This document shows positions 1 through 14,603 of a stretch of 17,171 bases of DNA, piece after piece (the first letter of the stretch is position 1; every line of letters starts with the position of its first letter). A program made the position numbers and the translations under genes. The notes beneath the pieces are model-generated. The model was not told the origin of the DNA and searched no databases. It worked only from the letters and a program-made list of their open reading frames with translations. Source of the DNA: a virus (Duplodnaviria; Heunggongvirae; Uroviricota; Caudoviricetes). Location: the IMG/VR virus record IMGVR_UViG_2778261277_000005; one strand, 5' to 3'.

Positions 1-416
1 CTCCCGGTCAGTTCACGGATCAACACCGTGAGCAGCTCTGGCGATGGATTTTCCAGCGTCATGTTACCGTGACGGAATTCCACCTTGCAGGAACTGGCAC
101 TGACTCTGGTCTGAGTGGAAGTGGATAAAGACGGCGCAATGGCCGCCACAGGTTCTTTCTGCTCATCCGGCGTTATTTCTACAGGTAATAATTCAACGCC
201 AGTGTCAGAAGAGGTCGTTACCGGAAGACGCCGCGAAACACGCCCTTCGTTCTGCCAGAGCCTGAGCCATTTGAAAATAACATTATCATTGACGCCATTT
301 TCACGTGCAATCTGTGCAACACAAGCTCCAGGTTGTGATGCCAGTTCCACCATACGAAGTTTGAATTCATTCGAATAGTTTTTACGAGGTTCTTTTCGCC
401 AGTCCTGTAATTCCAT
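1..416 (-). CDS. Insertion-sequence OrfA/TnpA-like helix-turn-helix protein (IS66- or IS3-type), N-terminal ~138 codons; ORF continues beyond the window start
   Basis: Reverse-complement translation from the ATG at 416..414 is stop-free to position 1: MELQDWRKEPRKNYSNEFKLRMVELASQPGACVAQIARENGVNDNVIFKWLRLWQNEG... The 'NYSxEFK...ARxxGV...WxxxxQxG' pattern is the classic transposase OrfA HTH signature. Not in the ORF track because it has no stop inside the window. Opposite in orientation to the phage late operon. Confidence 0.55.
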   Translation of the reverse strand, partial: MELQDWRKEPRKNYSNEFKLRMVELASQPGACVAQIARENGVNDNVIFKWLRLWQNEGRVSRRLPVTTSSDTGVELLPVEITPDEQKEPVAAIAPSLSTSTQTRVSASSCKVEFRHGNMTLENPSPELLTVLIRELTG

Positions 417-501
417 ACTTAGATGTCCGTCTATATCAGATGGGCGTCTAAGTTACCAATTCTCGTCTGATGGCTACATACGGCGGTCAGTTTACGCTTA
501 C
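1..501 (-). mobile_element. Partial insertion sequence (one terminus plus start of orfA); candidate terminus near 495-501
   Basis: Minus-strand sequence reading inward from ~501 starts 5'-GTAAGCGTAAACTGACC..., consistent with my recollection that IS66-family inverted repeats begin GTAAGCG. The orfA ATG lies ~85 nt inside this end. Terminase homology begins only downstream of ~540. The boundary is uncertain (476-570 possible). Confidence 0.4.
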
Positions 502-573
502 GATAAGGCCCGCGAGCATTCTAAAAAGCGCCTCGACAGAACGTTCAGAAGCAGTGCGGCGGTAAAGAAAAGA

Positions 574-2286
574 ATGAGTCCACGTCGTAACGACAATAAT
601 GTCCATGATAAGACGTTCAGGGATGGCTCGTTCCTTAAAATTGGTTGGCCCTCGGTCAACATTATGTCGTCGTCGGATTACCGGTTTGTCGCCTTAACCG
701 ATTACGACCGTTTTCCGGAGAATATCGACAGCGAGGGTGATGGTTTCTCCCTGGCCTCAAAACGTACCACCACATTTATGTCCGCCGGGATGACTCTGGT
801 GGAGAGCTCGCCGGGACGTGACATCTGCGACAGCAAATGGCGACGTAAGTCGCCTCATGAAGCGCCACCGACGACTGGTATTCTTTCCCTTTACAATCGT
901 GGTGACCGCCGCCGCTGGTACTGGCCATGTCCGCACTGCGGTGAATATTTTCAGCCAGCTATGGATGCCATGACCGGCTACCGTAATGAACCGGATCCCT
1001 TTAAAGCCAGTGAGGCGGCGTATCTACTTTGCCCGCACTGCAGCGGCATTATCACTGCGGAGAAAAAGCGTGAGCTCAATAGTGCAGGAGTCTGGTTACG
1101 TGAAGGTCAGGTCATTGATCGTAACGGCAACGTTTCCGGTGAACCGCGCCGCTCCCGTATCGCCAGTTTCTGGATGGAAGGGCCAGTTGCTGCGTATCAG
1201 ACCTGGGCGCAACTGGTTTACAAATTACTGACTGCAGAACAGGAGTATGAAGCGACAGGAAGCGAAGAAACACTCAGGGCGGTTATCAACACCGACTGGG
1301 GATTACCTTATCTTCCTCGTGCCAGCATGGAGCAACGAAAAAGTGAACTGCTTGAGCAGCGGGCAGAGCCAGTTCCTTCCCGCAGTGTTCCGGATGGCGT
1401 TAATTTCCTTGTGGCGACAGTGGATGTGCAGGCGGGACGTCATCGCCGTTTTGTGGTTCAGGTAACGGGCTATGGCAGCCGTGGCGAACGCTGGATTATT
1501 GATCGTTACAACATCACGCAGTCATTGCGCAGTGACTGCGACGGGGAGAGCCAGCGAATTGATCCGGCCAGCTATCCGGAAGACTGGGATGTCCTGCTGA
1601 CGGATGTTTTTCATAAAAGCTGGCCGCTGGCCTCCGATCCTTCTCAACAAATGCGACTGATGGCAATGGCGGTGGATTCCGGCGGTGAAGACGGGGTCAC
1701 TGATAATGCCTATAAATTCTGGCGTCGTTGCCGTCGTGATGGCCTTGGTAAACGTATTTACCTGTTTAAGGGCGACAGCATCCGGCGCGCAAAACTGATC
1801 AGCCGTACATTCCCTGATAACACCGGACGAACGGGCCGCCGGGCGCAGGCCGCAGGTGATGTGCCGCTCTGGCTTCTTCAGACGGATGCCCTGAAAGACC
1901 GGGTGAATAACGCGTTATGGCGTGACTCGCCAGGTCCAGGCTATGTGCATTTCCCTGACTGGCTGGGGAGCTGGTTTTACGACGAACTGACGTATGAAGA
2001 GCGGAGCAGTGACGGGAAATGGAGTAAGCCGGGTCGCGGTGCCAACGAAGCTTTTGACCTGATGGTGTATGCCGAGGCGCTGGTCATTCTGCATGGATAC
2101 GAAAAGATCCGCTGGCCGGATGCACCGGAGTGGGCGAGTCGGGAAACCTGGCTGGAGTGTGTCCCGGACAGTACCGAACCGTCACCCTCACCGGAGCCGG
2201 TATCCACGCCTGTTAAAAAACAAAAACGGAAGAAAACAGTAACTGACGATGTTAACCCCTGGCTGACTTCCGGAGGATGGTTATGA
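574..2286 (+). CDS. Terminase large subunit, GpA (lambda A) family, 5'-truncated: lacks the N-terminal ATPase/Walker A region
   Basis: The 570-aa ORF aligns to roughly residues 140-641 of lambda gpA by recollection (e.g. WYWPCPHCGEYF vs lambda VACPHCGEEQY; FLVATVDVQAGRHRRFVV...WIIDR vs lambda YLTAGIDSQLDRYEMRVW...WLIDR). Four-Cys motif CPHCG...CPHCSG present. The same frame is open upstream through ~502 into the IS junction, so 574 is only the first ATG. Stop overlaps the next gene start (ATGA). Confidence 0.8.
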   Translation: MSPRRNDNNVHDKTFRDGSFLKIGWPSVNIMSSSDYRFVALTDYDRFPENIDSEGDGFSLASKRTTTFMSAGMTLVESSPGRDICDSKWRRKSPHEAPPTTGILSLYNRGDRRRWYWPCPHCGEYFQPAMDAMTGYRNEPDPFKASEAAYLLCPHCSGIITAEKKRELNSAGVWLREGQVIDRNGNVSGEPRRSRIASFWMEGPVAAYQTWAQLVYKLLTAEQEYEATGSEETLRAVINTDWGLPYLPRASMEQRKSELLEQRAEPVPSRSVPDGVNFLVATVDVQAGRHRRFVVQVTGYGSRGERWIIDRYNITQSLRSDCDGESQRIDPASYPEDWDVLLTDVFHKSWPLASDPSQQMRLMAMAVDSGGEDGVTDNAYKFWRRCRRDGLGKRIYLFKGDSIRRAKLISRTFPDNTGRTGRRAQAAGDVPLWLLQTDALKDRVNNALWRDSPGPGYVHFPDWLGSWFYDELTYEERSSDGKWSKPGRGANEAFDLMVYAEALVILHGYEKIRWPDAPEWASRETWLECVPDSTEPSPSPEPVSTPVKKQKRKKTVTDDVNPWLTSGGWL

Positions 2287-2495
2287 ATCAGAATGATATT
2301 GAAGCCATGATTCAGCGTTATACGGAAGCTGAAATGGCGGTGCTGGACGGAAAATCCGTCACTTTTAATGGTCAGCAGATGACCATGGAAAACTTATCTG
2401 AGATCCGGCAGGGACGGCAGGAGTGGGAGCGCCGCCTTGCGGCTCTGATTACACGACGACGGGGGCATCCCGGGTACCGGCTGGCGAGGTTCTGA
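2283..2495 (+). CDS. W: Head completion / head-tail joining protein, gpW family
   Basis: 70 aa; ATG at 2283 overlaps the terminase stop (ATGA), with GGAGG ~6 nt upstream. C-terminal '...TRRRGHPGY' resembles the lambda W C-terminus ('...QRRRGPAGFYV'). Position between terminase and portal is as in lambda. Confidence 0.75.
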   Translation: MNQNDIEAMIQRYTEAEMAVLDGKSVTFNGQQMTMENLSEIRQGRQEWERRLAALITRRRGHPGYRLARF

Positions 2496-4003
2496 TGGCA
2501 ATTCTTGATGATGTGATTGGCGTTTTTTCACCAGGATGGAAAGCGGCAAGGCTGCGTTCCCGTGCGGTGATTCAGGCTTATGAGGCCGTAAAAACGACGC
2601 GGACACACAAAGCCCGACGGGAGAACCGAACTGCCGACCAGTTAAGCCAGTACGGGGCCGTGTCGTTACGTGAGCAGGCCCGTTACCTTGATAACAACCA
2701 CGATCTGGTCATTGGTGTATTTGACAAGCTGGAAGAACGGGTGGTGGGGAAAAACGGGATTATTGTCGAGCCACATCCGGTATTACGCAATGGGGCCATT
2801 GCCCGTGATCTGGCAGCGGAGATACGCACCCGATGGAGTGAATGGTCTGTCAGTCCGGAAGTCACCGGGCAGTTTACCCGTCCGATGCTGGAACGTCTGA
2901 TGCTGCGTACCTGGCTGCGCGATGGTGAGGTGTTTGCCCAGATGGTTTCCGGGCGCATAAACAGCTTGACGCCTTCTGCCGGTGTTCATTTCTGGCTGGA
3001 GGCGCTCGAGCCGGACTTTATTCCCATGACCAGTGATGAGAGCAACAGGCTGAATCAGGGCGTGTTTGTTGATGACTGGGGGCGTCCCGAAAAATATCTG
3101 GTGTATAAAAGCCGTCCCGTATCCGGGCGGCAGATGGAAACCAAAGAAGTGGATGCAGAGCGAATGCTGCATCTTAAATTTGTTCGCCGTCTGCACCAGA
3201 TGCGCGGGACGTCTTTGTTGTCCGGTGTGCTGATCCGCCTCAGTGCTCTGAAAGAGTATGAAGATTCTGAGCTGACTGCAGCAAGGATCGCCGCTGCTCT
3301 GGGGATGTACATCCGGAAAGGCGACGGACAGAGCTATGAAACGGATGGTAATGACAGCAAGGAGAATGAACGCGAGCTTACCATTCAGCCAGGCATTATT
3401 TACGACGATCTGAAACCCGGCGAAGAAATCGGAATGGTGAAGTCGGATCGCCCCAATCCTAACCTTGAAACTTTTCGTAATGGTCAGTTGCGTGCCGTGG
3501 CTGCGGGCAGTCGTCTGAGTTTTTCCAGTACAGCGCGCAACTATAACGGCACTTACAGCGCCCAGCGTCAGGAGCTGGTTGAATCTACTGATGGCTACCT
3601 GATCCTGCAGGACTGGTTTATTGGTGCCGTCACCCGCCCGATGTACCGTGCCTGGCTGAAACAGGCTGTGGCATCCGGTGTTATCAGGCTACCCCGCGAT
3701 CTGGACCGATCTTCACTGTATACCGCGGTGTATTCCGGACCGGTGATGCCGTGGATTGACCCTGTTAAGGAGGCTGAGGCCTGGAAAATTCAGATTCGTG
3801 GTGGAGCGGCGACAGAATCAGACTGGGTACGTGCAGGTGGTCGTAATCCGGATGATGTCAAACGTCGGCGCAAGGCCGAAATTGATGAAAACCGCAAGCT
3901 GGATCTGGTATTTGATACCGATCCGGCCAGTGATAAAGGAGGCAGCAGTGCCGCAACGAAACGACAGGAGCCGCAGCACACCGACGACCAGTCCGAAGAA
4001 TAA
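2495..4003 (+). CDS. Portal protein (lambda B-type family)
   Basis: 502 aa from the ATG overlapping the W stop (TGATG); the ORF-track start at 2423 is an in-frame upstream extension that overlaps W. Size and position are typical for a portal; sequence is diverged from lambda B. Confidence 0.8.
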   Translation: MAILDDVIGVFSPGWKAARLRSRAVIQAYEAVKTTRTHKARRENRTADQLSQYGAVSLREQARYLDNNHDLVIGVFDKLEERVVGKNGIIVEPHPVLRNGAIARDLAAEIRTRWSEWSVSPEVTGQFTRPMLERLMLRTWLRDGEVFAQMVSGRINSLTPSAGVHFWLEALEPDFIPMTSDESNRLNQGVFVDDWGRPEKYLVYKSRPVSGRQMETKEVDAERMLHLKFVRRLHQMRGTSLLSGVLIRLSALKEYEDSELTAARIAAALGMYIRKGDGQSYETDGNDSKENERELTIQPGIIYDDLKPGEEIGMVKSDRPNPNLETFRNGQLRAVAAGSRLSFSSTARNYNGTYSAQRQELVESTDGYLILQDWFIGAVTRPMYRAWLKQAVASGVIRLPRDLDRSSLYTAVYSGPVMPWIDPVKEAEAWKIQIRGGAATESDWVRAGGRNPDDVKRRRKAEIDENRKLDLVFDTDPASDKGGSSAATKRQEPQHTDDQSEE

Positions 4004-4016
4004 TTCCTGGTTCAGG

Positions 4017-5975
4017 ATGCAGGCAGGTCACCAGAGTGACGCGGATATTTATATTTATGACGAGATTGGTTTCTGGGGTGTTACAGCGAAGCAGTTTATC
4101 AGTGATCTGAATGCACTGGGCGATATCACCCACATTAATCTCCATATTAATTCACCGGGTGGCGATGTCTTTGAAGGCATCGCCATTTTTAATGCACTGA
4201 AAACACATGGTGCGTCCATTACCGTTTATGTCGACGGTGTGGCGGCGTCAATGGCGTCGGTCATTGCGATGGTGGGAAACCCGGTCATTATGCCGGAAAA
4301 CTCCTTCATGATGATTCATAAACCATTTGGCTTTACGGGCGGTGATGCGGAGGACATGCGCACCTATGCCGACCTGCTCGATAAAGTTGAGGCGGTTCTG
4401 TTACCCGCTTATGCACAGAAAACCGGGAAAACCACCGATGAAATTGCTGCCATGCTGGCGGATGAGACCTGGATGTCCGGTGCCGAATGTCTGGCACAGG
4501 GATTTGCTGATCAGGTGACACCAGCCGTTAAGGCAATGGCATGTATTCAGTCAAAACGTACAGAGGAATTTAAAAAGATGCCGGAATCCATTCGAAACAT
4601 GATTACTCCGCCACGCAACAGTGCTCCACGCGTACAGGATGATGAACCTGCAGCCTCCCGGACGCCAGTGCAGGCAGCAGCACCCGTGGTGGATGAAAAC
4701 AGTATCCGTGCGCAGGTACTGGCAGAGCAAAAAGCGCGTGTAAACGGTATTAATGATCTGTTTGCCATGTTTGGCGGGCGTTATCAGATGCTGCAGGCCC
4801 AGTGTCTTGCCGATCCTGAATGTTCGCTGGAGCAGGCCCGTGAAAAGCTGTTGAACGAGATGGGGCGCGAGTCCACGCCATCCAATAAAAATACCCCGGC
4901 TCATATTTATGCCGGTAACGGTAATTTTGTGGGGGACGGGATCCGCCAGGCGCTGATGGCGCGTGCCGGATTTGAAAAAACCGAACGTGATAATGTCTAC
5001 AACGGGATGACCCTGCGTGAATATGCCCGTATGTCACTAACTGAACGGGGTATTGGGGTTTCCGGTTATAACCCGATGCAGATGGTCGGTGCGGCGTTCA
5101 CACACAGTACGTCTGACTTCGGTAATATTCTGCTGGATGTTGCGAACAAAGCCATTCTGCAGGGCTGGGAAGATGCCCCTGAAACCTATGAACAGTGGAC
5201 GCGGAAAGGTCAGTTGTCTGATTTTAAAATTGCCCATCGTGTGGGTATGGGGGGCTTCAGTGCTCTGCGTCAGGTGCGTGAAGGGGCGGAATATAAATAC
5301 GTCACCACCGGAGATAAACAGGCCACTATTGCACTGGCGACCTATGGCGAGCTGTTCAGTTTCACCCGTCAGGCCATTATCAATGATGATCTGAATATGC
5401 TGACCGATGTCCCGATGAAACTGGGCCGTGCGGCGAAATCCACTATTGCCGATCTGGTTTATGCCATTCTGACGTCTAACCCGAAAATCTCCACAGATAA
5501 TGTAAGTCTGTTCGATAAAGCGAAACATGCAAACGTACTGGAGAGCGCTGCAATGGACGTGGCATCGCTGGATAAAGCCCGCCAGTTGATGCGCGTTCAG
5601 AAAGAGGGGGAGCGTCATCTGAATATTCGTCCTGCGTTCGTACTGGTACCGACGGCGATGGAGTCTGTTGCTAACCAGGTCATTCGCTCCTCAAGTGTCA
5701 AGGGGGCTGACATTAACGCCGGTATTATTAACCCGGTGAAAGATTTTGCGACCGTTATTGCAGAGCCTCGTCTTGATGATAACAGCCAGACCACCTTCTA
5801 CCTGGCTGCGTCAAAAGGCTCCGATACGATTGAAGTGGCTTATCTCAACGGTGTGGATACGCCATATATTGATCAGATGGAGGGCTTCAGTGTGGATGGC
5901 GTGACAACGAAAGTGCGTATTGACGCCGGTGTCGCGCCAGTTGATCACCGCGGTCTGGTGAAATGTACGGCGTAA
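4017..5975 (+). CDS. Fused prohead protease (ClpP/S14-like) - linker/scaffold - major capsid protein (HK97 fold)
   Basis: The N-terminal ~200 aa carry a ClpP-like serine protease signature (HINSPGGDVFEGIAIF..., GVAASMASVI..., MMIHKP); a Pro/Ala/Gln-rich linker follows; the C-terminal ~380 aa resemble major capsid proteins. Start chosen at the first ATG after the portal stop (MQAGHQSDADIYIYDE...); the ORF-track start at 3756 overlaps the portal. Confidence 0.8.
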   Translation: MQAGHQSDADIYIYDEIGFWGVTAKQFISDLNALGDITHINLHINSPGGDVFEGIAIFNALKTHGASITVYVDGVAASMASVIAMVGNPVIMPENSFMMIHKPFGFTGGDAEDMRTYADLLDKVEAVLLPAYAQKTGKTTDEIAAMLADETWMSGAECLAQGFADQVTPAVKAMACIQSKRTEEFKKMPESIRNMITPPRNSAPRVQDDEPAASRTPVQAAAPVVDENSIRAQVLAEQKARVNGINDLFAMFGGRYQMLQAQCLADPECSLEQAREKLLNEMGRESTPSNKNTPAHIYAGNGNFVGDGIRQALMARAGFEKTERDNVYNGMTLREYARMSLTERGIGVSGYNPMQMVGAAFTHSTSDFGNILLDVANKAILQGWEDAPETYEQWTRKGQLSDFKIAHRVGMGGFSALRQVREGAEYKYVTTGDKQATIALATYGELFSFTRQAIINDDLNMLTDVPMKLGRAAKSTIADLVYAILTSNPKISTDNVSLFDKAKHANVLESAAMDVASLDKARQLMRVQKEGERHLNIRPAFVLVPTAMESVANQVIRSSSVKGADINAGIINPVKDFATVIAEPRLDDNSQTTFYLAASKGSDTIEVAYLNGVDTPYIDQMEGFSVDGVTTKVRIDAGVAPVDHRGLVKCTA

Positions 5976-5997
5976 ACGTCGCAGACAACAACTCTGA

Positions 5998-6020
5998 TGG
6001 CCCGTAAGGGCTTTTTTTGT
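5998..6020 (+). terminator. Putative intrinsic terminator after the capsid gene
   Basis: GCCC-GTAA-GGGC short hairpin immediately followed by TTTTTTT, about 25 nt after the capsid stop codon. Confidence 0.45.
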
Positions 6021-6061
6021 ACCTGAAATCAGCCCCTGAACGGGGCTGTGCGGAGACAGTT

Positions 6062-6385
6062 ATGGCAAAGAATTTTGTAGAAGAAGGAAAAACGGTGGCG
6101 ATTGTTGCCAGTGCAGCCATCAGCAGCGGAGATCTGGTGCAGGTGGGCGATGTTTTTGCGGTGGCGCTGACCGATATTCCACAGGGTGAAACAGGCGACG
6201 GCATGACCGAAGGTGTGTTTATGCTGCCTAAGCTGAAAACGGATGACATGAAAACGGGTAAGAAGGTTTATCTGAAGTCCGGAAAAGTTCAGCTGACTAA
6301 CAGCGGCTCTGATCCGCTGGTCGGGGTTGTCTGGGCAGATGCCGGAACCAGTGCAGAAGAAGTGCCGGTAAAACTCAATGTCTGA
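6062..6385 (+). CDS. DUF2190-family small head protein (putative capsid decoration/cement protein)
   Basis: 107 aa from MAKNFVEEGKTV...VGVVWADAG...VPVKLNV, preceded by GGAGA; it resembles the ~110-aa DUF2190 proteins that commonly follow major capsid genes. The ORF-track start at 6017 is an upstream extension. Confidence 0.55.
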   Translation: MAKNFVEEGKTVAIVASAAISSGDLVQVGDVFAVALTDIPQGETGDGMTEGVFMLPKLKTDDMKTGKKVYLKSGKVQLTNSGSDPLVGVVWADAGTSAEEVPVKLNV

Positions 6386-6653
6386 TCCCTTTTCCCGGCT
6401 GGCAGCGCGTATGGATGCTATCACGGTTAGAAAGATGGGAAAGACAGCCTCGATTAATGATGTCGATATGACTGTGATCCCGGGAGAAACACTGGCAGAG
6501 CTGAATGCTCTGTCCGGACCTGCGGTCTCTCTGGTGGTGTTTTCTTCGGGATACCGCCCACGGCGCGGGGATCGCGTTGTTTATGACGGACAACAATGGA
6601 CGGTCACACGGCATGAACGTTTTAACGGTAAGCCAATGATCTTTATTGAGTAA
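6378..6653 (+). CDS. Head-tail connector protein, lambda FII-like
   Basis: 91 aa. 'RRGDRVVYDGQQWTVTR' matches the lambda FII 'RRGDTLTIGEENFWVDR' region by recollection, and the N-terminus 'FSRLAARMDAI' resembles FII 'FDAAIARADETI'. Start overlaps the previous stop. Confidence 0.65.
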   Translation: MSDPFSRLAARMDAITVRKMGKTASINDVDMTVIPGETLAELNALSGPAVSLVVFSSGYRPRRGDRVVYDGQQWTVTRHERFNGKPMIFIE

Positions 6654-6664
6654 AGAGGTGTGGG

Positions 6665-7243
6665 ATGAAGGGGCTTGAGAATGCCATCCGTAATCTGAAC
6701 AGCCTTGATACCCGTATGGTGCCACAGGCCAGCGCATGGGCGATAAACCGTGTGGCACAGAAAGCGGTCTCGGTCGCCACCCGGCAGGTTGCCGGGAATA
6801 CCGTTGCGGGAGATAACCAGGTGAAAGGGATCCCCCTGAAACTGGTACGTCAGCGTGTCCGGGTGTTTAAAGCCAGTCCGTCAGGAAAAATGACGGCCAG
6901 GATCCGCGTTAACCGGGGCAATCTGCCCGCTATTAAGCTGGGGACAGCCCGGGTCAGACTGGCCCGGCGTGGTGGAAAACTGCAGTACCGTGGCAGTGTG
7001 CTGAAGGTGGGTAAATATCTTTTCCGGGATGCGTTTATTCAGCAACTGGCGAATGGTCGCTGGCATGTGATGCGGCGTATTGATGGCAAAAATCGTTACC
7101 CCATTGATGTGGTGAAAGTCCCGCTGTCCGGACCGCTGACACAGGCATTTGAAGATGCCCGCGACCGCATTATTGCTGCGGAAATGCCGAAACAGCTGGG
7201 GTATGCACTGAAACAACAACTGAGGTTATGGCTGACCCGATGA
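6665..7243 (+). CDS. Z: Minor tail protein Z (tail completion)
   Basis: 192 aa, the same length as lambda Z; strongly lambda-Z-like (AINRVA..., IRVNRGNLPAIKLG, QQLANGRWHVMRR, GKNRYPIDVVKVP, LGYALKQQLR). GAGGTG RBS upstream. Confidence 0.85.
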   Translation: MKGLENAIRNLNSLDTRMVPQASAWAINRVAQKAVSVATRQVAGNTVAGDNQVKGIPLKLVRQRVRVFKASPSGKMTARIRVNRGNLPAIKLGTARVRLARRGGKLQYRGSVLKVGKYLFRDAFIQQLANGRWHVMRRIDGKNRYPIDVVKVPLSGPLTQAFEDARDRIIAAEMPKQLGYALKQQLRLWLTR

Positions 7244-7641
7244 ACCGACATACACAAATCCGCCAGGCCGTACTGGCACGCCTTCGGGAACAGTGTGGAG
7301 ACAGCGCCACGTTTTTTGACGGGCTTCCGGCATTTATTGATGCGCAGGAACTGCCTGCCGTGGCGGTGTGGCTGAGTGATGCTCAGTACACCGGAAAAAT
7401 GACGGATGAAGATGACTGGCAGGCTGTTCTGCATATTGCTGTCTTCATCCGGGCACAGGCACCGGATTCAGAGCTGGATATGTGGATGGAGAGCACCATT
7501 TTCCCGGCCCTGAATGATATACCGGCACTTTCCGGACTCATCGACACCCTGATCCCTCTCGGTTTTAACTATCAACGTGATAATGAGATGGCCACCTGGG
7601 CGATGGCGGAAATCACGTACCAGATCACGTACACGAATTAA
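7240..7641 (+). CDS. U: Tail terminator protein U
   Basis: ATG at 7240 overlaps the Z stop (ATGA). MNRHTQIRQAVLARL...ATFFDG...PAVAVWL...PDSELDMWMES...IPALS...ITYTN parallels lambda U almost residue for residue by recollection. The ORF-track start at 7228 is a short upstream extension. Confidence 0.9.
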   Translation: MNRHTQIRQAVLARLREQCGDSATFFDGLPAFIDAQELPAVAVWLSDAQYTGKMTDEDDWQAVLHIAVFIRAQAPDSELDMWMESTIFPALNDIPALSGLIDTLIPLGFNYQRDNEMATWAMAEITYQITYTN

Positions 7642-7652
7642 AGGAGGTGGCA

Positions 7653-8396
7653 ATGACCACACCAAATCCACTGGCAAAAACGAAAGGTGCGGGAACGACG
7701 TTCTGGATGTACACCGGCAAGGGCGATGCGTTTGCGAACCCTTTATCGGACACTGACTGGCTGCGTCTTGCGATGGTGAAGGATCTGCAACCTGGCGAAA
7801 TGACCGCTGATGCAGAAGATGACACTTATCTCGATGATGAAGATGCAGACTGGAAAACGACAACCCAGGGGCAGAAATCCGTTGGTGATACTTCGGCGAC
7901 GCTGGCCTGGCGTCCGGGTGACAGCGGGCAGAAAAAACTGGTTCAGTTGTTCGACTCCGGTGAAGTCTGCGCGTTTCGTATCAAATATCCCAACGGCACT
8001 GTTGATGTTTTCCGTGGCTGGCTGAGCTCACTGGGTAAAACCATTGCCTCAAAAGACGTGATGACCCGCACAGTGAAAATCAGCGGTGTGGGGCGTCCGT
8101 ATCTGGCAGAGGAAGGCACTGAAACAGTGAGCGTTACCGGGCTGACGGTGGCACCGGCATCTGCCAGTGTAAAAGTGGGAGCAACCACCACGCTGACCTT
8201 TACAGTAAAACCTGACGGAGCCAGTGACAAAGCGATCAGTGTGCATTCGACAGATCCACAGACTGCCACGGTGACCCTGAACGGGCTTGTGGCCACGGTG
8301 AAAGGCGTGAAGCAGGGCAGTGTCAGCATTGTGGGCATGACTTCTGACGGCGATTTTGTGGCAGTGGCTGCGGTGGCTGTCAGCGCCGCAGGTTAA
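7653..8396 (+). CDS. V: Major tail tube protein V with C-terminal Ig-like (Big_2-type) domain
   Basis: AGGAGG RBS, then ATG (MTTPNPLAKTKGAGTT...). Matches lambda V (KGAGTT, YANPLSD, YLDDEDADW, QGQKS.GDTS, NGTVDVFRGW), and the C-terminal ~90 aa are Thr/Val/Ser-rich like the lambda V Ig-like domain. The ORF-track start at 7647 is a GTG two codons upstream. Confidence 0.9.
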   Translation: MTTPNPLAKTKGAGTTFWMYTGKGDAFANPLSDTDWLRLAMVKDLQPGEMTADAEDDTYLDDEDADWKTTTQGQKSVGDTSATLAWRPGDSGQKKLVQLFDSGEVCAFRIKYPNGTVDVFRGWLSSLGKTIASKDVMTRTVKISGVGRPYLAEEGTETVSVTGLTVAPASASVKVGATTTLTFTVKPDGASDKAISVHSTDPQTATVTLNGLVATVKGVKQGSVSIVGMTSDGDFVAVAAVAVSAAG

Positions 8397-8414
8397 CAGG
8401 ACGATACTCATCAT

Positions 8415-8440
8415 TTGCCCCGGTTATCCGGGGCTTTTTT
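8415..8440 (+). terminator. Intrinsic terminator between V and G
   Basis: GCCCCGG-TTAT-CCGGGGC (7-bp GC stem) followed by TTTTTT, ~20 nt after the V stop. The ORF-track TTG start for G (8415) lies inside this hairpin and is rejected. Confidence 0.6.
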
Positions 8441-8456
8441 GCAGGTGGAGAACATG

Positions 8457-8843
8457 ATGTTTCTGAAACAGGGCACGTTTAATTATGAAAAGCAGTCCGT
8501 GGTGCTCAGTGAGCTGTCCGGGCTGCAGAGAATTGAATATCTGGCGTTTGTTCAGCAGCGAACGGCAAAGTTTGATGCCGAAGAGGGAGAACTGCCGGAG
8601 GCTGAACGACAGATTGCTTTTCTGCGGATGGGGATGGATATCAATGCCTGGCTGGTTTCCCGCTCACTGTGGAATGCGGAACAGTCTCAGGATGTTGAGA
8701 CGCTTTGCGCATCCGTTATTACAACATGGTCGTATGATGCCCTGGGAGCGGGGGCGGAGATGGTTCTGTCGCTGAGCGGTATGGGAGTCATTGAGAATGC
8801 CGGGGATTTGGAGCATGAGGTGCTGACGCCGGAAAAGTCCTGA
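8457..8843 (+). CDS. G: Tail assembly chaperone G
   Basis: Starts MFLKQGTF... (lambda G starts MFLKTESF...), with GGAG upstream; 128 aa; located immediately upstream of the tape measure gene. Confidence 0.85.
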   Translation: MFLKQGTFNYEKQSVVLSELSGLQRIEYLAFVQQRTAKFDAEEGELPEAERQIAFLRMGMDINAWLVSRSLWNAEQSQDVETLCASVITTWSYDALGAGAEMVLSLSGMGVIENAGDLEHEVLTPEKS

Positions 8844-9181
8844 CGCGGGAAATGCAGTTTGTCATGCGGCTTGCCCGGGAGTTCCGGCGGGCAGACTGGC
8901 GGCGGATGCTGTCGGAAATGTCGGCCACTGAGCTTGGTGAGTGGGGCGATTATTTCCGGATGCAGAGCTTCAGTGATGTGTGGATGGATGCGCAGTTTGC
9001 CTCGCTGAAGGCATTGATCGTGAGAATGGTGTCCGGTAGCAGTGATGCTGCGGTGGCTGATTTCAGCCTTTTACCGGAAGAGAACGGGATACCGGAGCGA
9101 ACGGACGAAGAACTGATGCATCTTGGGGAAGGTATTTCCGGAGGTGTGCGTTATGGACCAGATAGCCAACCTGGTCATTGA
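8457..9181 (+). CDS. T: Tail assembly chaperone G-T fusion, produced by programmed -1 ribosomal frameshift near the 3' end of G
   Basis: The 8852..9181 ORF is in the -1 frame relative to G, and that frame is stop-free across the G stop codon. This mirrors the conserved G/GT arrangement of lambda-like tail modules. Candidate slip region is CCGGAAAAG, ~8829-8837. Confidence 0.7.
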
Positions 9182-12100
9182 TTTGGGGATTGATGCGGCA
9201 GAGTTTAAAAATGAAATTCCCCGTATCAAAAACCTTCTGAATGGTGCAGCCAGCGATGCAGAACGGTCTTCTGCCCGTATGCAGCGTTTTATGGAGCGTC
9301 AGACTCAGGCCGCCCGGCAGACAACGCAGGCAGCTTCTTCGGCTGCAACAGCCGCATCCGTCCATGCGCAGACGGTGGAGAAGAACGCACAGGCTCATGA
9401 ACGCATGGCCCGCGAGGTGGAGAAAACCCGCCAGCGCATGGAGGCACTGAGCCAGAAAATGCGCGAGGAACAGGCGCAGGCCATGGCTCTGGCGGAGGCT
9501 CAGGATAAAGCGGCTGCTGCGTTTTATCGTCAGATTGACAGTGTGAAACAGGCCAGTGCGGGGCTGCAGGAATTACAGCGTATTCAGCAGCAGATCCGAC
9601 AGGCCAGAAACAGTGGCGGGATTGGTCAGCAGGATTATCTGGCGCTGATTTCTGAGGTTACTGCGAAAACTCGTGTTCTTACACAGGCTGAGGAAGAGGC
9701 TACCCGACAGAAAGTGGCGTTTATCCGTCAGCTTAAAGAGCAGGCAACCCGCCAGAATCTTTCTTCTTCTGAGTTGCTTCGTGCTAAGGCTGCCCAGCTG
9801 GGGGTAAGCAGTGCTGCAGAAGTGTATATCCGCAAAATGGAGCAGGCAGGAAAAGCCACGCATTCGCTGGGTCTGAAAAGTGCAGCGGCCCGCCAGGAGA
9901 TAGGCGTTCTGATAGGTGAACTGGCTCGCGGCAATTTAGGTGCGCTGAGGGGATCCGGGATAACGCTGGCTAACCGTGCCGGATGGATAGACACACTGAT
10001 GTCACCGAAAGGCATGATGCTGGGCGGGGTTATTGGCGGTATTGCCGCGGCCGTCTATGGTCTGGGTAAAGCCTGGTATGATGGTCAGAAGGAGGGGGAA
10101 GAATTTAACCGCCAGTTGTCGCTGACGGGGCATTATGCCGGAGTCACTGCCGGGCAGCTGTGGACGCTCAGTCGTGCTATTTCCGGGAATGGTATCACGC
10201 AACATGCTGCAGCCGGTGCGCTGGCTCAGGTGGTGGGGAGTGGTGCATTTCGTGGAAACGATATCGGTATGGTGGCGAGAGCTGCCGCACAGATGGAGCG
10301 ATCGGTTGGCCAGTCGGTCAGCGATACCATAAATCAGTTTAAGCGGCTGAAGGATGATCCTGTAAATGCCGCGAAGGCTCTGGACAATGAGCTGCATTTT
10401 CTTACTGCCACTCAGCTTGAGCAGATACGCGTCCTTGGGGAACAGGGGCGGTCCAGTGATGCGGCACGGATAGCCATGTCTGCACTGGCAGAGGAAACCG
10501 GTCGGCGTACTGCGGATATTGATAATAACCTCAATGCGCTGGGCAGTACGCTGAAGTATCTGTCTGATTTATGGAGTCGTTTCTGGGATGCGGCCATGAA
10601 TATTGGTCGTGAAGACTCGCTGGATGAACAGATTTCCGCTTTACAGGAGAAAGTGTCGCGGGCGAAAAGACTCCCCTGGACGGCATCATCTTCTCAGGTT
10701 GAGTACGATCAGCAGCGTCTTAACGAGCTTCAGGAGAAAAAACGCCAGAAGGATTTGCAGGATGCAAAAGAGCAGGCAGAGCAGAATTATCAGGAGCAAC
10801 AGAAACGCCGTAATGCTGAAAATGCTGCACTGAACCGGATGAATGAAACGGAAGCAGCACGACATCAGCGTGAAATTGCGCGTATTAATTCCATGCAGTA
10901 CGCCGATCAGGCTGTCAGGGATGCGGCGATACAACGTGAAAATGAACGTTACGAGAAAGCCCTGGCATCCGGTAAGAAAAAAACACGCGAACCCCGTAAT
11001 GATGAGGCCACCCGGTTATTGCTGCAGTACAGTCAGCAACAGGCACAGGTGGAAGGACAGATTGCTGCTGTCAGACAGTCAGCAGGCATTGCCACGGAAA
11101 GGATGACAGAAGCGCATAAACAGCTTCTGGCTCTGCAGCAGCGCATCAGCGACCTGGACGGGAAAAAACTGACGGCAGATGAAAAGAGTGTGCTGGCCCG
11201 TAAAGATGAACTGATTCAGGCACTGACGCTGCTGGATGTAAAACAGCAGGAGCTTCAGAAACAGACGGCACTCAACGAGCTGAAGAAAAAAACAATTCAG
11301 CTGACCAGTCAACTGGCTGAAGAAGAGCGCGCTCAGCGTCAGCAACATGACCTGGATATCGCCACGGTGGGTATGGGTGATCAGCAGCGGCAGCGATATC
11401 AGGTACAACTGAGTCTTCGCCAGAAATACCAGCAACAGCTGGAGCAGTTGAGGCGGGATAGTGAGCAGAAAGGAACATATAACACGGATGACTACAGAAA
11501 GGCCGAGCAGGCGCTGACGGAGAGCCTGAACCGACAACTGAATGAGAATCGCCGTTACTGGCAACAGCTTGAAGTTGTGCAGGGTAACTGGAAAAACGGA
11601 GTCCTGCGTGCATTTCAGAATTTTACCGTGGATGCAGATAATACGGCAGGAACAGCAGAACAGGTGTTCTCGTCAGCCTTCAGCAACATGGGAAATGGCC
11701 TGGCAACTTTTGTCACTACCGGCAAACTCAATTTCAAATCCTTCACCTCTTCTGTGCTGTCAGACATGGCGAAAATCCTGGCGCAGGCAACCATGATGAA
11801 ATCGATAAAAGGGATTGGCAGTGTACTGGGATTTGATCTCAGCAGCCTTTCCCTGAATGCCAATGGGGGGATTTATCAGTCTGCTGATTTGAGTCGTTAC
11901 AGTGGCACGGTGGTTAACCGTCCGACGTTTTTTGCTTTTGCAAAAGGCGCGGGTGTGATGGGGGAAGCGGGACCTGAAGCCATTCTGCCACTGCGTCGTG
12001 GTGCTGACGGTAAGCTGGGGGTTGTGGCGGATATTGGTGGTTCAGGTATGGCGATGTTTGCCCCGCAGTACAACATCGAGATCAATAACGATGGCACGAA

Positions 12101-12218
12101 CGGGCAGATAGGTCCGGCTGCCCTGAAGGTGGTTTATGACCTCGGGAAAAAAGCGGCAGCGGACTTTATGCAACAGCAGGCCCGTGATGGTGGTCGGTTA
12201 AGTGGAGCATATCGGTAA
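9153..12218 (+). CDS. H: Tail tape measure protein H
   Basis: ~1021 aa from the ATG preceded by GGAGG (MDQIANLVIDLGID...); the ORF-track start at 9123 is an upstream extension. Long Q/A/E/R-rich coiled-coil central region; directly downstream of G/T. Stop overlaps the M start (TAATG). Confidence 0.9.
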   Translation: MDQIANLVIDLGIDAAEFKNEIPRIKNLLNGAASDAERSSARMQRFMERQTQAARQTTQAASSAATAASVHAQTVEKNAQAHERMAREVEKTRQRMEALSQKMREEQAQAMALAEAQDKAAAAFYRQIDSVKQASAGLQELQRIQQQIRQARNSGGIGQQDYLALISEVTAKTRVLTQAEEEATRQKVAFIRQLKEQATRQNLSSSELLRAKAAQLGVSSAAEVYIRKMEQAGKATHSLGLKSAAARQEIGVLIGELARGNLGALRGSGITLANRAGWIDTLMSPKGMMLGGVIGGIAAAVYGLGKAWYDGQKEGEEFNRQLSLTGHYAGVTAGQLWTLSRAISGNGITQHAAAGALAQVVGSGAFRGNDIGMVARAAAQMERSVGQSVSDTINQFKRLKDDPVNAAKALDNELHFLTATQLEQIRVLGEQGRSSDAARIAMSALAEETGRRTADIDNNLNALGSTLKYLSDLWSRFWDAAMNIGREDSLDEQISALQEKVSRAKRLPWTASSSQVEYDQQRLNELQEKKRQKDLQDAKEQAEQNYQEQQKRRNAENAALNRMNETEAARHQREIARINSMQYADQAVRDAAIQRENERYEKALASGKKKTREPRNDEATRLLLQYSQQQAQVEGQIAAVRQSAGIATERMTEAHKQLLALQQRISDLDGKKLTADEKSVLARKDELIQALTLLDVKQQELQKQTALNELKKKTIQLTSQLAEEERAQRQQHDLDIATVGMGDQQRQRYQVQLSLRQKYQQQLEQLRRDSEQKGTYNTDDYRKAEQALTESLNRQLNENRRYWQQLEVVQGNWKNGVLRAFQNFTVDADNTAGTAEQVFSSAFSNMGNGLATFVTTGKLNFKSFTSSVLSDMAKILAQATMMKSIKGIGSVLGFDLSSLSLNANGGIYQSADLSRYSGTVVNRPTFFAFAKGAGVMGEAGPEAILPLRRGADGKLGVVADIGGSGMAMFAPQYNIEINNDGTNGQIGPAALKVVYDLGKKAAADFMQQQARDGGRLSGAYR

Positions 12219-12547
12219 TGGAGACGTTTCACTGGAAAGTGCGCCCGGATATGAATGTGGTATCAGAGCCGAAAGTGGTGACAGTGAAGCTGGGCGATGG
12301 TTATGAACAGCGTCGTGCGGCGGGACTGAATAACCAGTTGTCGATTTACAGCGTGACGATACGTGTTCGTAAATGTGAACACCCATCTTTAAAAGCCTTT
12401 CTGGAACGGCACGGTGGCGTCCGCGCATTTCAGTGGACGCCACCTTATGACTGGAAGCCGATCAGGGTGGTTTGTCGTAAATGGTCGGCAAGCGTGGGGG
12501 CGCTGTGGGTAACCATAACGGCAGATTTTGAACAGGTCGTGGCATAG
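12218..12547 (+). CDS. M: Minor tail protein M (tail tip)
   Basis: 109 aa, the same length as lambda M; METFHWKV...GDGYEQR...YSVT...HGG...WTPPYDW...FEQVV parallels lambda M by recollection. Confidence 0.9.
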   Translation: METFHWKVRPDMNVVSEPKVVTVKLGDGYEQRRAAGLNNQLSIYSVTIRVRKCEHPSLKAFLERHGGVRAFQWTPPYDWKPIRVVCRKWSASVGALWVTITADFEQVVA

Positions 12548-12556
12548 GAGGCCCTG

Positions 12557-13255
12557 ATGCAGGATATTTCACAGGAAACACATCATGAGACGACACGCCT
12601 CACTCAGTCAGCCCAGGTGGTGCTCTGGGAAATCGATCTGACAGTGGTCGGTGGTGAACGTTATTTTTTCTGTAATGAGCAGAACGATAAAGGTGAGCCG
12701 GTCACCTGGCAGGGGCGACAGTATCAGGCGTATCCCATTCAGGGGACGGGATTTGAACTGAACGGCAAAGGCAGTGCTGCCCGTCCGACACTGACGGTTT
12801 CTAACCTGCACGGCATGGTCACCGGGATGGCGGAAGACCTGCAGAGTCTGGTCGGAGGAACGGTGGTCCGGCGTAAGGTTTACGCCCGTTTTCTGGATGC
12901 GGTGAACTTCGTCAACGGAAACAGTGACGCCGATCCGGAGCAGGAGGTGATCAGCCGCTGGCGCATCGAGCAGTGCAGTGAACTGAGCGCGGTGAGTGCC
13001 TCTTTTGTACTGTCCACGCCGACGGAAACGGACGGTGCCGTTTTTCCGGGACGTATCATGCTGGCCAACACCTGCACCTGGACCTATCGCGGTGATGAGT
13101 GCGGTTATCACGGTCCGGCGGTCGCGGATGAATATGATCAGCCGACGTCCGATATCACGAAGGATAAATGCAGCAAATGCCTGAGCGGCTGTAAGTTTCG
13201 CAATAACGTCGGCAACTTTGGCGGCTTCCTTTCCATTAACAAACTTTCGCAGTGA
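12557..13255 (+). CDS. L: Minor tail protein L (tail tip, C-terminal Cys cluster)
   Basis: 232 aa, the same length as lambda L; near-identical blocks (VVLWEIDLT, GGERYFFCNEQN, VTWQGRQYQ, GMVTGMAEDLQSLVGGTVVRRKVYARFLDAVNFVNGNS, KDKCSKCLSGCKFRNNVGNFGGFLSINKLSQ). AGGAGG RBS. Confidence 0.92.
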   Translation: MQDISQETHHETTRLTQSAQVVLWEIDLTVVGGERYFFCNEQNDKGEPVTWQGRQYQAYPIQGTGFELNGKGSAARPTLTVSNLHGMVTGMAEDLQSLVGGTVVRRKVYARFLDAVNFVNGNSDADPEQEVISRWRIEQCSELSAVSASFVLSTPTETDGAVFPGRIMLANTCTWTYRGDECGYHGPAVADEYDQPTSDITKDKCSKCLSGCKFRNNVGNFGGFLSINKLSQ

Positions 13256-13260
13256 ATCCC

Positions 13261-14004
13261 ATGACAGAGACAGAATCAGCGATTCTGGCGCACGCCCGGC
13301 GATGTGCGCCAGCGGAGTCGTGCGGCGTCGTGGTGAGAACACCGGAGGGGGAAAGATATTTTCCCTGCGTGAATATATCCGGTGAGCCGGAGGAGTATTT
13401 CCGGATGTCGCCGGAGGACTGGCTGAGTGCAGAAATGCAGGGAGAGATTGTGGCGCTGGTCCACAGCCACCCCGGTGGTCTGCCCTGGCTGAGTGAGGCC
13501 GACCGGCGGCTGCAGGTGCAGAGTGATTTGCCGTGGTGGCTGGTCTGCCGGGGGGCGATTCATAAATTCCGCTGTGTGCCGCATCTCACCGGGCGGCGCT
13601 TTGAGCACGGGGTGACGGACTGTTACACGCTGTTCCGGGACGCTTACCATCTGGCGGGAATTGAGATGCCGGATTTTCATCGCGGGGATGACTGGTGGCG
13701 TCACGGTCAGAATCTCTATCTGGATAATCTGGAGGCCACAGGGCTGTATCAGGTGCCGTTGTCATCAGCACAACCGGGCGATGTGCTGCTGTGCTGCTTT
13801 GGTTCATCGGTGCCGAATCATGCCGCCATTTACTGTGGTGACGGCGAGCTGCTGCACCATATTCCTGAACAACTGAGCAAACGAGAGAGGTATACCGACA
13901 AATGGCAGCGACGCACACACTCCCTCTGGCGTCACCGGGCATGGCGCGCATCTGCCTTTACGGGGATTTACAACGATTTGGCCGCCGCATCGATCTGCGT
14001 GTGA
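13261..14004 (+). CDS. K: Tail tip assembly protein K (JAB/MPN metalloprotease-like plus NlpC/P60-like domains)
   Basis: ATG just after the L stop (MTETESAIL...). JAMM-like motif 'VHSHPGG...SEAD'; downstream Cys/His-containing region (DCYTLF..., NHAAIYCG) typical of the NlpC/P60 domain of lambda K. The 3' end overlaps I in another frame, as in lambda. Confidence 0.85.
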   Translation: MTETESAILAHARRCAPAESCGVVVRTPEGERYFPCVNISGEPEEYFRMSPEDWLSAEMQGEIVALVHSHPGGLPWLSEADRRLQVQSDLPWWLVCRGAIHKFRCVPHLTGRRFEHGVTDCYTLFRDAYHLAGIEMPDFHRGDDWWRHGQNLYLDNLEATGLYQVPLSSAQPGDVLLCCFGSSVPNHAAIYCGDGELLHHIPEQLSKRERYTDKWQRRTHSLWRHRAWRASAFTGIYNDLAAASICV

Positions 14005-14426
14005 AAACGGGGGCCGAAGCCATCCGGGCGCTGGCCATGCAGATCCCGGCGTTTCGTCAGAAGCTGAGCGACGGCTGGTATCAGGTACGCATTGCCGGGC
14101 GTGATACAGGTGAAACGGAATTATCAGCCCGTCTTAATGAACCGCTGGCAAATGGTGCTGTGATCCATATCGTGCCGCGTCTGGCGGGAGCCAAAAGTGG
14201 CGGTGTGTTTCAGGCTGTGCTGGGGGCGGCTGTTATGGCGGTTGCTATATGGATGCCGGGGGTAGGAATTATGGCGAGTAATCTGCTGTTTTCTCTCGGT
14301 GCCAGTATGACGCTTGGCGGTGTTGCACAGATGCTGGCCCCTAAACCCAAAACCCCCCGCACACAGACAACGGATAACGGCAAACAGAACACCTATTTTT
14401 CTTCACTGGATAACATGGTTGCCTAG
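13902..14426 (+). CDS. I: Tail tip assembly protein I, ending at an in-frame TAG; the C-terminal 38 codons continue in frame to 14543
   Basis: MAATHTLPLASPGMARICLYGDLQRFGRRIDLRVKTGAEAIRALA... is essentially the lambda I N-terminus. The ORF ends ...YFSSLDNMVA-TAG, and the same frame continues GNVLPVLYGEMRVGSRVVSQEISTADEGDGGQVVVIGR-TGA, which matches the lambda I C-terminus, where Q (CAG) occupies the TAG position. Confidence 0.85.
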   Translation: MAATHTLPLASPGMARICLYGDLQRFGRRIDLRVKTGAEAIRALAMQIPAFRQKLSDGWYQVRIAGRDTGETELSARLNEPLANGAVIHIVPRLAGAKSGGVFQAVLGAAVMAVAIWMPGVGIMASNLLFSLGASMTLGGVAQMLAPKPKTPRTQTTDNGKQNTYFSSLDNMVA

Positions 14427-14561
14427 GGCAATGTTCTGCCTGTTCTGTACGGTGAAATGCGCGTGGGGTCACGCGTGGTTTCTCAGGAGATCAGCACGGC
14501 AGACGAAGGGGATGGTGGTCAGGTTGTGGTGATTGGTCGCTGATGCAAAATGTTTTATGTG

Positions 14562-14585
14562 AAACCGCCTGCGGGCGGTTTTGTC
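14562..14585 (+). terminator. Hairpin plus T-rich tract between I and J (possible attenuator or RNA structure)
   Basis: AACCGCC-TGCG-GGCGGTT stem-loop followed by TTGTCGTTT, ~20 nt upstream of the J RBS. Confidence 0.35.
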
Positions 14586-14603
14586 GTTTATGGAGCGTGA
14601 GGA

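Follow-up and report, generated by a model that had tools for sequence, protein, structure and literature searches.

A ClpP-like protease and an HK97-fold capsid protein encoded in one reading frame of a lambdoid Escherichia coli prophage

Can the prohead protease, a scaffold and the major capsid protein of a tailed phage be made as a single chain, and if so, where does that chain begin, which of its segments would do what, and how would the capsid part be set free? The question is raised by a long open reading frame (ORF) in the head gene region of a 17,171-nt stretch of viral DNA (IMG/VR record IMGVR_UViG_2778261277_000005; the whole stretch is called the window here). An earlier note, made from the letters of the DNA, had read this frame as one gene with a ClpP-like N-terminus, a linker and a capsid domain, and all three parts were indeed matched by hidden Markov models (HMMs). 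With a probability of about 0.9, the gene is the ‘tripartite’ head gene of the Gifsy-2/mEp460-type lambdoid prophages of E. coli. As such it is already known, from a curated NCBI family (NF045540), a structural paper on Gifsy-2 and a genomic description of the MD8 group, and the remark that such fusions occur in some prophages and are little studied was correct. The gene ranks with the commonest E. coli prophage genes and carries little weight as a discovery; the remaining interest is mechanistic and concerns the position of the cut, the protease that would come with each subunit and the segment that would serve as scaffold.

The head-tail module and the state of the prophage

Positions 502-17171 of the window are collinear, without gaps and at 99.8% identity, with a prophage of E. 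coli CP55_Sichuan (NZ_CP053731), for which the PGAP annotation gives the order terminase, small head-tail adaptor, portal, fusion gene, DUF2190 and then the lambda-like series of tail genes Z, U, V, G, T, H, M, L, K, I and J. The window is the head-tail module of a lambdoid prophage, and the features in and around the fusion gene are collected in Table 1. The gene that follows the fusion gene has a homologue in MD8 that is annotated as a head decoration protein, and the site of the hairpin between the two genes carries a rho-independent terminator in the annotations of mEp460 and mEp213. The setting within a lambdoid head module, with a portal gene upstream and a decoration-protein gene downstream, is that of the Gifsy-2-type tripartite gene, and so is the make-up of the frame, i.e. 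a single ORF with an N-terminal ClpP-like domain carrying Ser and His and a C-terminal HK97-fold capsid domain.

Further along the module, a lambda-like GGGAAAG slippery site was not found at the junction of the tail chaperone genes G and T. A 625-aa ORF on the minus strand (15204-17081) was judged spurious, as it matches no family and runs antisense to the tail-tip gene J, within which it lies.

Positions 1-501 of the window are foreign to the prophage and represent the end (the tnpA side) of an IS66-family element, which sits in the large terminase gene, about 315 nt from its start; the remaining terminase frame opens only at position 574. Because this element interrupts the large terminase gene, the prophage copy probably cannot package DNA on its own and is probably not producing phage, and its copy of the fusion gene may never be used for building particles, though the gene is intact. 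The interrupted terminase gene is also the argument for regarding the fusion gene as a relic, i.e. as a decaying gene of a defective prophage that has no function in this genome. Such a state is conceivable but rather unlikely, given a gene that is not only undamaged but agrees at 100% identity with copies in other genomes and at 99% with those of viable phages, in a window whose remainder is collinear, at the identity given above, with the head-tail module of an intact prophage. Moreover, the relic reading bears on the state of the prophage and leaves the identity of the gene untouched.

Table 1. Features of the fusion gene and its immediate surroundings (positions in the window; residues in the 675-aa form)
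Feature	Position	Strand	Residues	Basis and remarks
Lambda-family portal gene	2495..4003	+		PGAP in NZ_CP053731; PHROG 21, E = 6e-139; last 56 nt overlap the fusion gene
Shine-Dalgarno sequence AAGGAGG	3936..3942	+		Direct reading; 5 nt before GTG 3948; alike in mEp213 and MD8
Whole fusion gene: ClpP-like prohead protease/scaffold/major capsid protein	3948..5975	+	675 aa plus stop	ORF; NF045540; start as called by PGAP
ClpP-like (S14) protease domain	4083..4520	+	46-191	Pfam CLP_protease; NF045542; ClpPs in the PDB
Predicted catalytic Ser codon, motif GVAASMA	4248..4250	+	101	Aligned with the serine of ClpP AASMG
Predicted catalytic His codon, motif MIHKP	4317..4319	+	124	Aligned with the histidine of ClpP MIHQP
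Glu codon, third position of the ClpP triad	4464..4466	+	173	Alignment to 1y7o
Conserved segment after the protease, MACIQSKRTEEFKKMPESIRNMITPP	4536..4613	+	197-222	Alignments; column counts
Hypervariable, indel-rich Pro/Ala/Thr-rich linker	4614..4691	+	223-248	About 26 aa; alignments
Conserved helical segment, best scaffold (delta-domain-like) candidate	4692..4865	+	249-306	Three helices; conservation
Variable, predicted-disordered stretch, RESTPSNKNTPAHIYAGNGN	4866..4925	+	307-326	First candidate maturation-cleavage zone
Three conserved helices ahead of the part alignable with Mu/JBD30	4926..5102	+	327-385	AlphaFold2
HK97-fold major capsid protein core	5103..5972	+	386-675	Pfam; profile against PDB; AlphaFold2; Foldseek
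GC-rich hairpin followed by a T run	5999..6022	+		Terminator-like; 24 nt beyond the stop
Head decoration protein gene (DUF2190 family), next downstream	6062..6385	+		PHROG 122, E = 1.8e-47; PGAP

Reading frame, start codon and parts of the chain

A single reading frame is open from position 3756 to the stop codon at 5973-5975, and reading it through reveals neither an internal stop nor a frameshift. The gene had at first been placed at 4017-5975; the frame and the stop of that call stand, whereas its start does not, the more likely one being GTG 3948. The version that begins at ATG 4017 lies in the same frame and is 23 codons shorter (652 aa), its residue numbers being those of the 675-aa form minus 23.

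Specifically, the start is most likely GTG 3948, 69 nt upstream of ATG 4017, because a complete AAGGAGG precedes it, because PGAP chooses this codon and arrives at a 675-aa product, because mEp213 starts at the same GTG behind the same AAGGAGG and MD8 at an ATG behind GGAGG in the equivalent position, and because the Met of codon 4017 is replaced by Ile in Gifsy-2 and MD8, in an alignment where the upstream motif ‘SW[FY]’ (Ser-Trp-Phe/Tyr) is invariant. ATG 4017, with only an AGG as ribosome-binding element that abuts the codon without a spacer, is on these features probably not the start. If the gene starts at GTG 3948, its first 56 nt coincide with the end of the portal gene. In the records of mEp460, cdtI, Ayreon, Tritos and phi458 the gene begins at the ATG equivalent to 4017, whereas PGAP uses the upstream GTG with its better ribosome-binding site. 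Between annotations, the start-codon calls for this gene differ by 23 codons.

The domain search that had been proposed as a check delimits both enzymatic and structural parts. Pfam CLP_protease matches residues 23-168 in the 652-aa numbering (E = 4.6e-36) and Phage_capsid_4 residues 354-649 (E = 1.1e-54; same numbering), with Mu-like_gpT as a weaker additional match. The first 200 residues thus hold a protease fold, and with a frame free of hidden stops and frameshifts both points on which the earlier reading could have failed are settled in its favour. The protease domain is further matched by NF045542 (head maturation protease, ClpP-related; E = 1.3e-64), and ClpP structures in the PDB align to it with E-values down to 8e-16. 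Among 55 diverse full-length fusions (36-54% identical), the predicted catalytic Ser101 and His124 are each kept in 55/55, while position 173 holds Glu in 47 of them and Asp in 4; this third position of the triad corresponds to Asp171 in the numbering of E. coli ClpP. Cellular ClpP is matched incompletely: the Pfam alignment runs over profile positions 29-179 of 182, so that the first ~28 positions, which we take to be the N-terminal axial part, are missing, and the score against TIGR00493 is 60 bits for a cut-off of 308.6. From these alignments we infer that the domain is a prohead protease of ClpP fold rather than a cellular ClpP that is partnered by an ATPase.

At the other end of the chain, an AlphaFold2 model of residues 300-675, built on an alignment of the C-terminal 376 residues from 25 diverse homologues, has a pLDDT of 83.1 and a pTM of 0.76. 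Foldseek against the PDB pairs this model with HK97 gp5 in several maturation states, with encapsulins and with the capsid proteins of SaPI1 and other phages (probability 1.00, E about 1e-8), and the C-terminal HK97 fold is thereby confirmed at the level of the predicted structure, which was the second check proposed. The nearest solved relatives are the Mu-type capsid proteins, and they are reached only by profile search, in which the alignment profile finds the capsid proteins of JBD30 (8rkc; 1.7e-15) and Mu (9jod; 2.9e-12) in the PDB. The N-termini of these two proteins begin to align at about residue 384-395, and a beta-rich part of about 65 aa at the C-terminus of the capsid core is absent from Mu gpT. 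Among the solved structures, no close relative turned up, nor did this capsid type or its procapsid at high resolution.

Between the two domains, a linker does exist as the earlier note had it, but the Pro/Ala/Gln-rich region described there is only about 26 aa long and is rich in Pro, Ala and Thr. The majority-residue fraction is 0.36-0.69 in this region versus 0.8-0.99 elsewhere, and its length varies from 2 to 48 aa among 55 homologues. The linker is a short flexible tether, and the candidate for a scaffold is the helical segment behind it (residues 249-306, perhaps to ~385). Arg264, Ala297 and Leu302 are conserved within residues 249-306, which are also the sole part to reach a pLDDT of 70-83 in an AlphaFold2 model of the full 675 aa that is otherwise of low confidence (20 close homologues of at least 75% identity; mean pLDDT 35.5). 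A scaffold role of this segment may be proposed on these grounds. The product is very probably one 675-aa chain that runs from GTG 3948 through a ClpP-like protease, a flexible linker and the helical segment into an HK97-fold major capsid protein (MCP) related to those of the Mu/JBD30 type.

The same reading frame could in principle also give nested products, if an internal start at Met211 (ATG 4578), directly behind the protease domain, added a protease-less scaffold-capsid chain of 465 aa, similar to HK97 gp5. In the window, Gifsy-2, mEp213 and MD8 alike, an in-frame Met-Pro follows GAGGA(A/G) or CAGGAG at a distance of 9-10 nt, and the cluster representatives include stand-alone scaffold plus capsid proteins (P0168 and P0229; 443 and 468 aa) whose N-termini lie near Met211. 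However, the purines that resemble a Shine-Dalgarno sequence are forced by the conserved codons for Glu-Glu-Phe or Gln-Glu-Phe, their spacing is long, and the two stand-alone proteins may be truncated gene calls. Above all, column counts show Pro212 kept across the family and Met211 only in close relatives, with Ile, Pro, Ala or Val at this position in most of the 55 diverse fusions, and an internal start is for this reason considered improbable. If it were real, the gene would work in the style of lambda C/Nu3, the dose of protease per procapsid would be below one per subunit, and there would be no 1:1 ratio.

Relatives of the fused gene

The single-chain reading is borne out by NF045540, the curated NCBIfam family ‘ClpP-like prohead protease/major capsid protein fusion protein’, whose HMM spans the junction of protease and capsid protein. 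The protein scores 984.6 bits against a cut-off of 475, with residues 9-651 of the 652-aa form corresponding to profile positions 2-651 of 652, and PHROG 133 likewise matches it over its full length; such agreement lies well outside what chance would give. The second NCBIfam fusion family, NF045541 (‘prohead protease/major capsid protein fusion protein’, e.g. in Ralstonia phage YO122_2), has a homologous scaffold plus capsid part but differs in its N-terminal ~190 aa, which form a domain that is not ClpP and is not recognised by Pfam. Here the score is 400.8 bits for a cut-off of 525, and the match is limited to residues 197-649 of the 652-aa form. The protease junction of NF045541 falls at ~197-198 in this form (~220-221 in the 675-aa form), just upstream of the linker.

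Within E. coli, a match is present in 2125 of 5426 complete genomes (~40%), with up to 6 copies per genome. Identical DNA (100%) occurs in E. coli chromosomes, where PGAP gives it the product name of NF045540, and the genes of mEp460, cdtI, Ayreon, Tritos and phi458 have 98.8-99.4% amino-acid identity, with further isolated phages at about 99%. Full-length homologues are encoded by Stx phages, mEp213, LLS, Fels-1, Gifsy-2, a Providencia phage and the Pseudomonas MD8/F10 group. When 1.84 billion cluster representatives were searched exhaustively with the fusion protein, 38,822 matches emerged, and more than 100 of the best 150 are fusions over the full length (640-740 aa; 36-60% identity). Because so many divergent representatives carry the full-length form, the fusion is, on sequence comparison, a deep and large family and no local accident. 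Annotation labels for the gene are inconsistent and include "Nu3", "protease C", "terminase" and "major head protein".

Separate protease and capsid genes are the usual arrangement, and many phages match the protease part alone or the capsid part alone, but the idea that two genes (protease; scaffold-capsid) only seem to be joined, by a sequencing error or a frameshift mutation, is refuted, because the fused frame is kept even between divergent sequences. The single ORF recurs across thousands of separate assemblies, in phage isolates of E. coli, Salmonella, Klebsiella, Providencia and Pseudomonas and in the cluster representatives just counted, and a curated HMM covers the junction.

The closest described counterpart of the tripartite gene is that of Gifsy-2 (STM1034.3n), with 69.5% identity over the full length, the same order of ClpP-like protease, central domain and capsid protein, and similar neighbours, i.e. 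a portal gene upstream and a small decoration-type gene downstream. It differs by an N-terminus that is 10 aa longer, a slightly longer linker and an insert of 8 aa before the capsid domain, and otherwise in nothing substantial. According to PMC12315714, the fused protease/coat gene of Gifsy-2 (the "tripartite capsid gene") was described by Effantin et al. (2010, Virology 402:355). The capsid of Gifsy-2 has T=7 symmetry (PMC8814770), and the phage is listed with those whose decoration protein is trimeric and sits at the three-fold axes (PMC8538268). Pseudomonas phage MD8 and the F10 group have a single gene alike, in the same gene order and with 57% identity, but in another host and with a linker of other sequence and length; for MD8 gp5, HHpred and Phyre2 have been used to argue that a single gene provides the protease, the scaffold and the capsid protein (PMC8508860). 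Moreover, protease-scaffold-capsid fusions are a common feature of small actinobacteriophages (PMC7302621).

Candidate cleavage zones and a proposed course of assembly

Two classical systems resemble parts of the tripartite gene. The capsid domain shares the fold of HK97, as the Foldseek match to gp5 indicates. In HK97, gp5 carries a delta domain with scaffold function, fused before the capsid domain and removed by the phage protease, but this protease (gp4) has its own gene and belongs to an unrelated family, and the capsids are cross-linked and undecorated. Lambda is similar in having a portal of the same family and a decoration protein (gpD), and differs in that its protease belongs to another family of serine proteases and its capsid protein gpE has a gene of its own. 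Protease and scaffold of lambda (gpC/Nu3) are encoded in one reading frame (PMC8508860).

By its variable length and predicted disorder, the stretch at residues 307-326 stands out as a zone where the chain may be cut. It varies between 17 and 27 aa across homologues, keeps Pro311, and contains the 8-aa insert of Gifsy-2; residues 313-324 have a pLDDT below 50 in the AlphaFold model of residues 300-675. The helices that follow (at 28-40, 57-66 and 77-86 of the same model) belong either to the end of the scaffold or to the capsid protein, as an extension at its N-terminus. The maturation cut would most likely fall within residues 307-326 or just before ~384, and for a gene of the Gifsy-2 type it would be expected to leave a capsid protein of about half the length of the precursor or shorter. 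Literature searches on this family (mEp460, cdtI, the Gifsy-2 capsid) for virion proteomics or N-terminal sequencing turned up genome surveys only.

A course of assembly can be drawn by analogy with HK97 (delta domain-capsid), lambda (protease-scaffold) and the published work on Gifsy-2. The chains would assemble together on the portal to form a T=7 procapsid; its shell would be made of the capsid domains, while the helical segment and the protease domain of each chain would face inwards. Crowding within the shell would switch on the Ser101/His124 protease, which would sever the scaffold from the capsid domains and digest the internal parts, and these would exit. DNA packaging would then lead to expansion of the shell, followed by its stabilisation through trimers of the decoration protein encoded by the downstream gene. 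An autoproteolytic release of the capsid protein, as the earlier note had it, can thus be reasonably supposed by analogy, and the same holds for a fixed 1:1 synthesis of protease and capsid protein, because both lie in a single reading frame. If each capsid subunit does bring its own protease, about 415 ClpP-like domains would have to be housed and activated in a procapsid.

One weak terminator-like hairpin within the gene (4910-4923) was put down to chance (5 such sites versus 2.2 expected).

Relatives of the fusion protein

An ORF of Ralstonia phage YO122_2, assigned to the second protease/major capsid protein fusion family (NF045541), has its scaffold and capsid module in common with the fusion protein of the window, but its N-terminal domain of ~190 aa is a different one, which is not recognized by Pfam. 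That the scaffold and capsid module is kept while the N-terminal domain is different suggests that the protease module has been swapped at or near the hypervariable linker. A longer combination was predicted in one representative from the search of cluster representatives with the fusion protein (P0265, 1224 aa), where a lambda-family portal, a ClpP-like protease and capsid domains are found in a single protein; this could be either an even larger fusion or the result of gene calls merged where the portal and protease genes overlap.

Features of the window and of the sister-family record (L007, Ralstonia phage YO122_2)
Feature	Record	Position	Strand	Remark
697-aa ORF, family NF045541	L007	1829-3922		Ralstonia phage YO122_2; record carries no annotation
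IS66-family element end, ISEc23-like, tnpA side	window	1-501		junction 501/502
Terminase large subunit remnant	window	502-2286		
GC-rich hairpin and T run	window	5999-6022		between capsid fusion gene and decoration protein gene
Tail assembly chaperone genes G and T	window	8457-9181		
625-aa ORF	window	15204-17081	minus	antisense within tail-tip protein J gene

Boundaries of the fusion gene

Records disagree on where the fusion gene starts (window 3936-4019). In those of mEp460 and the cdtI phage it begins at the ATG equivalent to 4017, whereas PGAP places the start at GTG 3948. A perfect AAGGAGG precedes this codon at a distance of 5 nt, and a gene that starts here shares 56 nt with the portal gene. 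Product names also vary among phage records, and include ‘Nu3’, ‘protease C’, ‘terminase protein’ and ‘major head protein’. Downstream of the gene, the hairpin and T run are labelled as a rho-independent terminator in the mEp460 and mEp213 records; as the site lies in the middle of a late operon, presumably either transcription passes it by antitermination or the site adjusts how strongly the head genes are expressed relative to those downstream.

Terminase and tail genes

The IS66-family element end is inserted in the prophage's large terminase gene, which, judged from related prophages, would start at about 187 if intact; this prophage probably has a defect in DNA packaging. The tail genes G and T adjoin as in lambda; the GGGAAAG slippery heptamer is absent from their junction in the window, so that any G-T frameshift would need another site. 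Within the tail-tip J gene, which starts at 14604 and continues past the window end, the 625-aa ORF matches nothing in Pfam, and chance is the likeliest explanation for this antisense reading frame.
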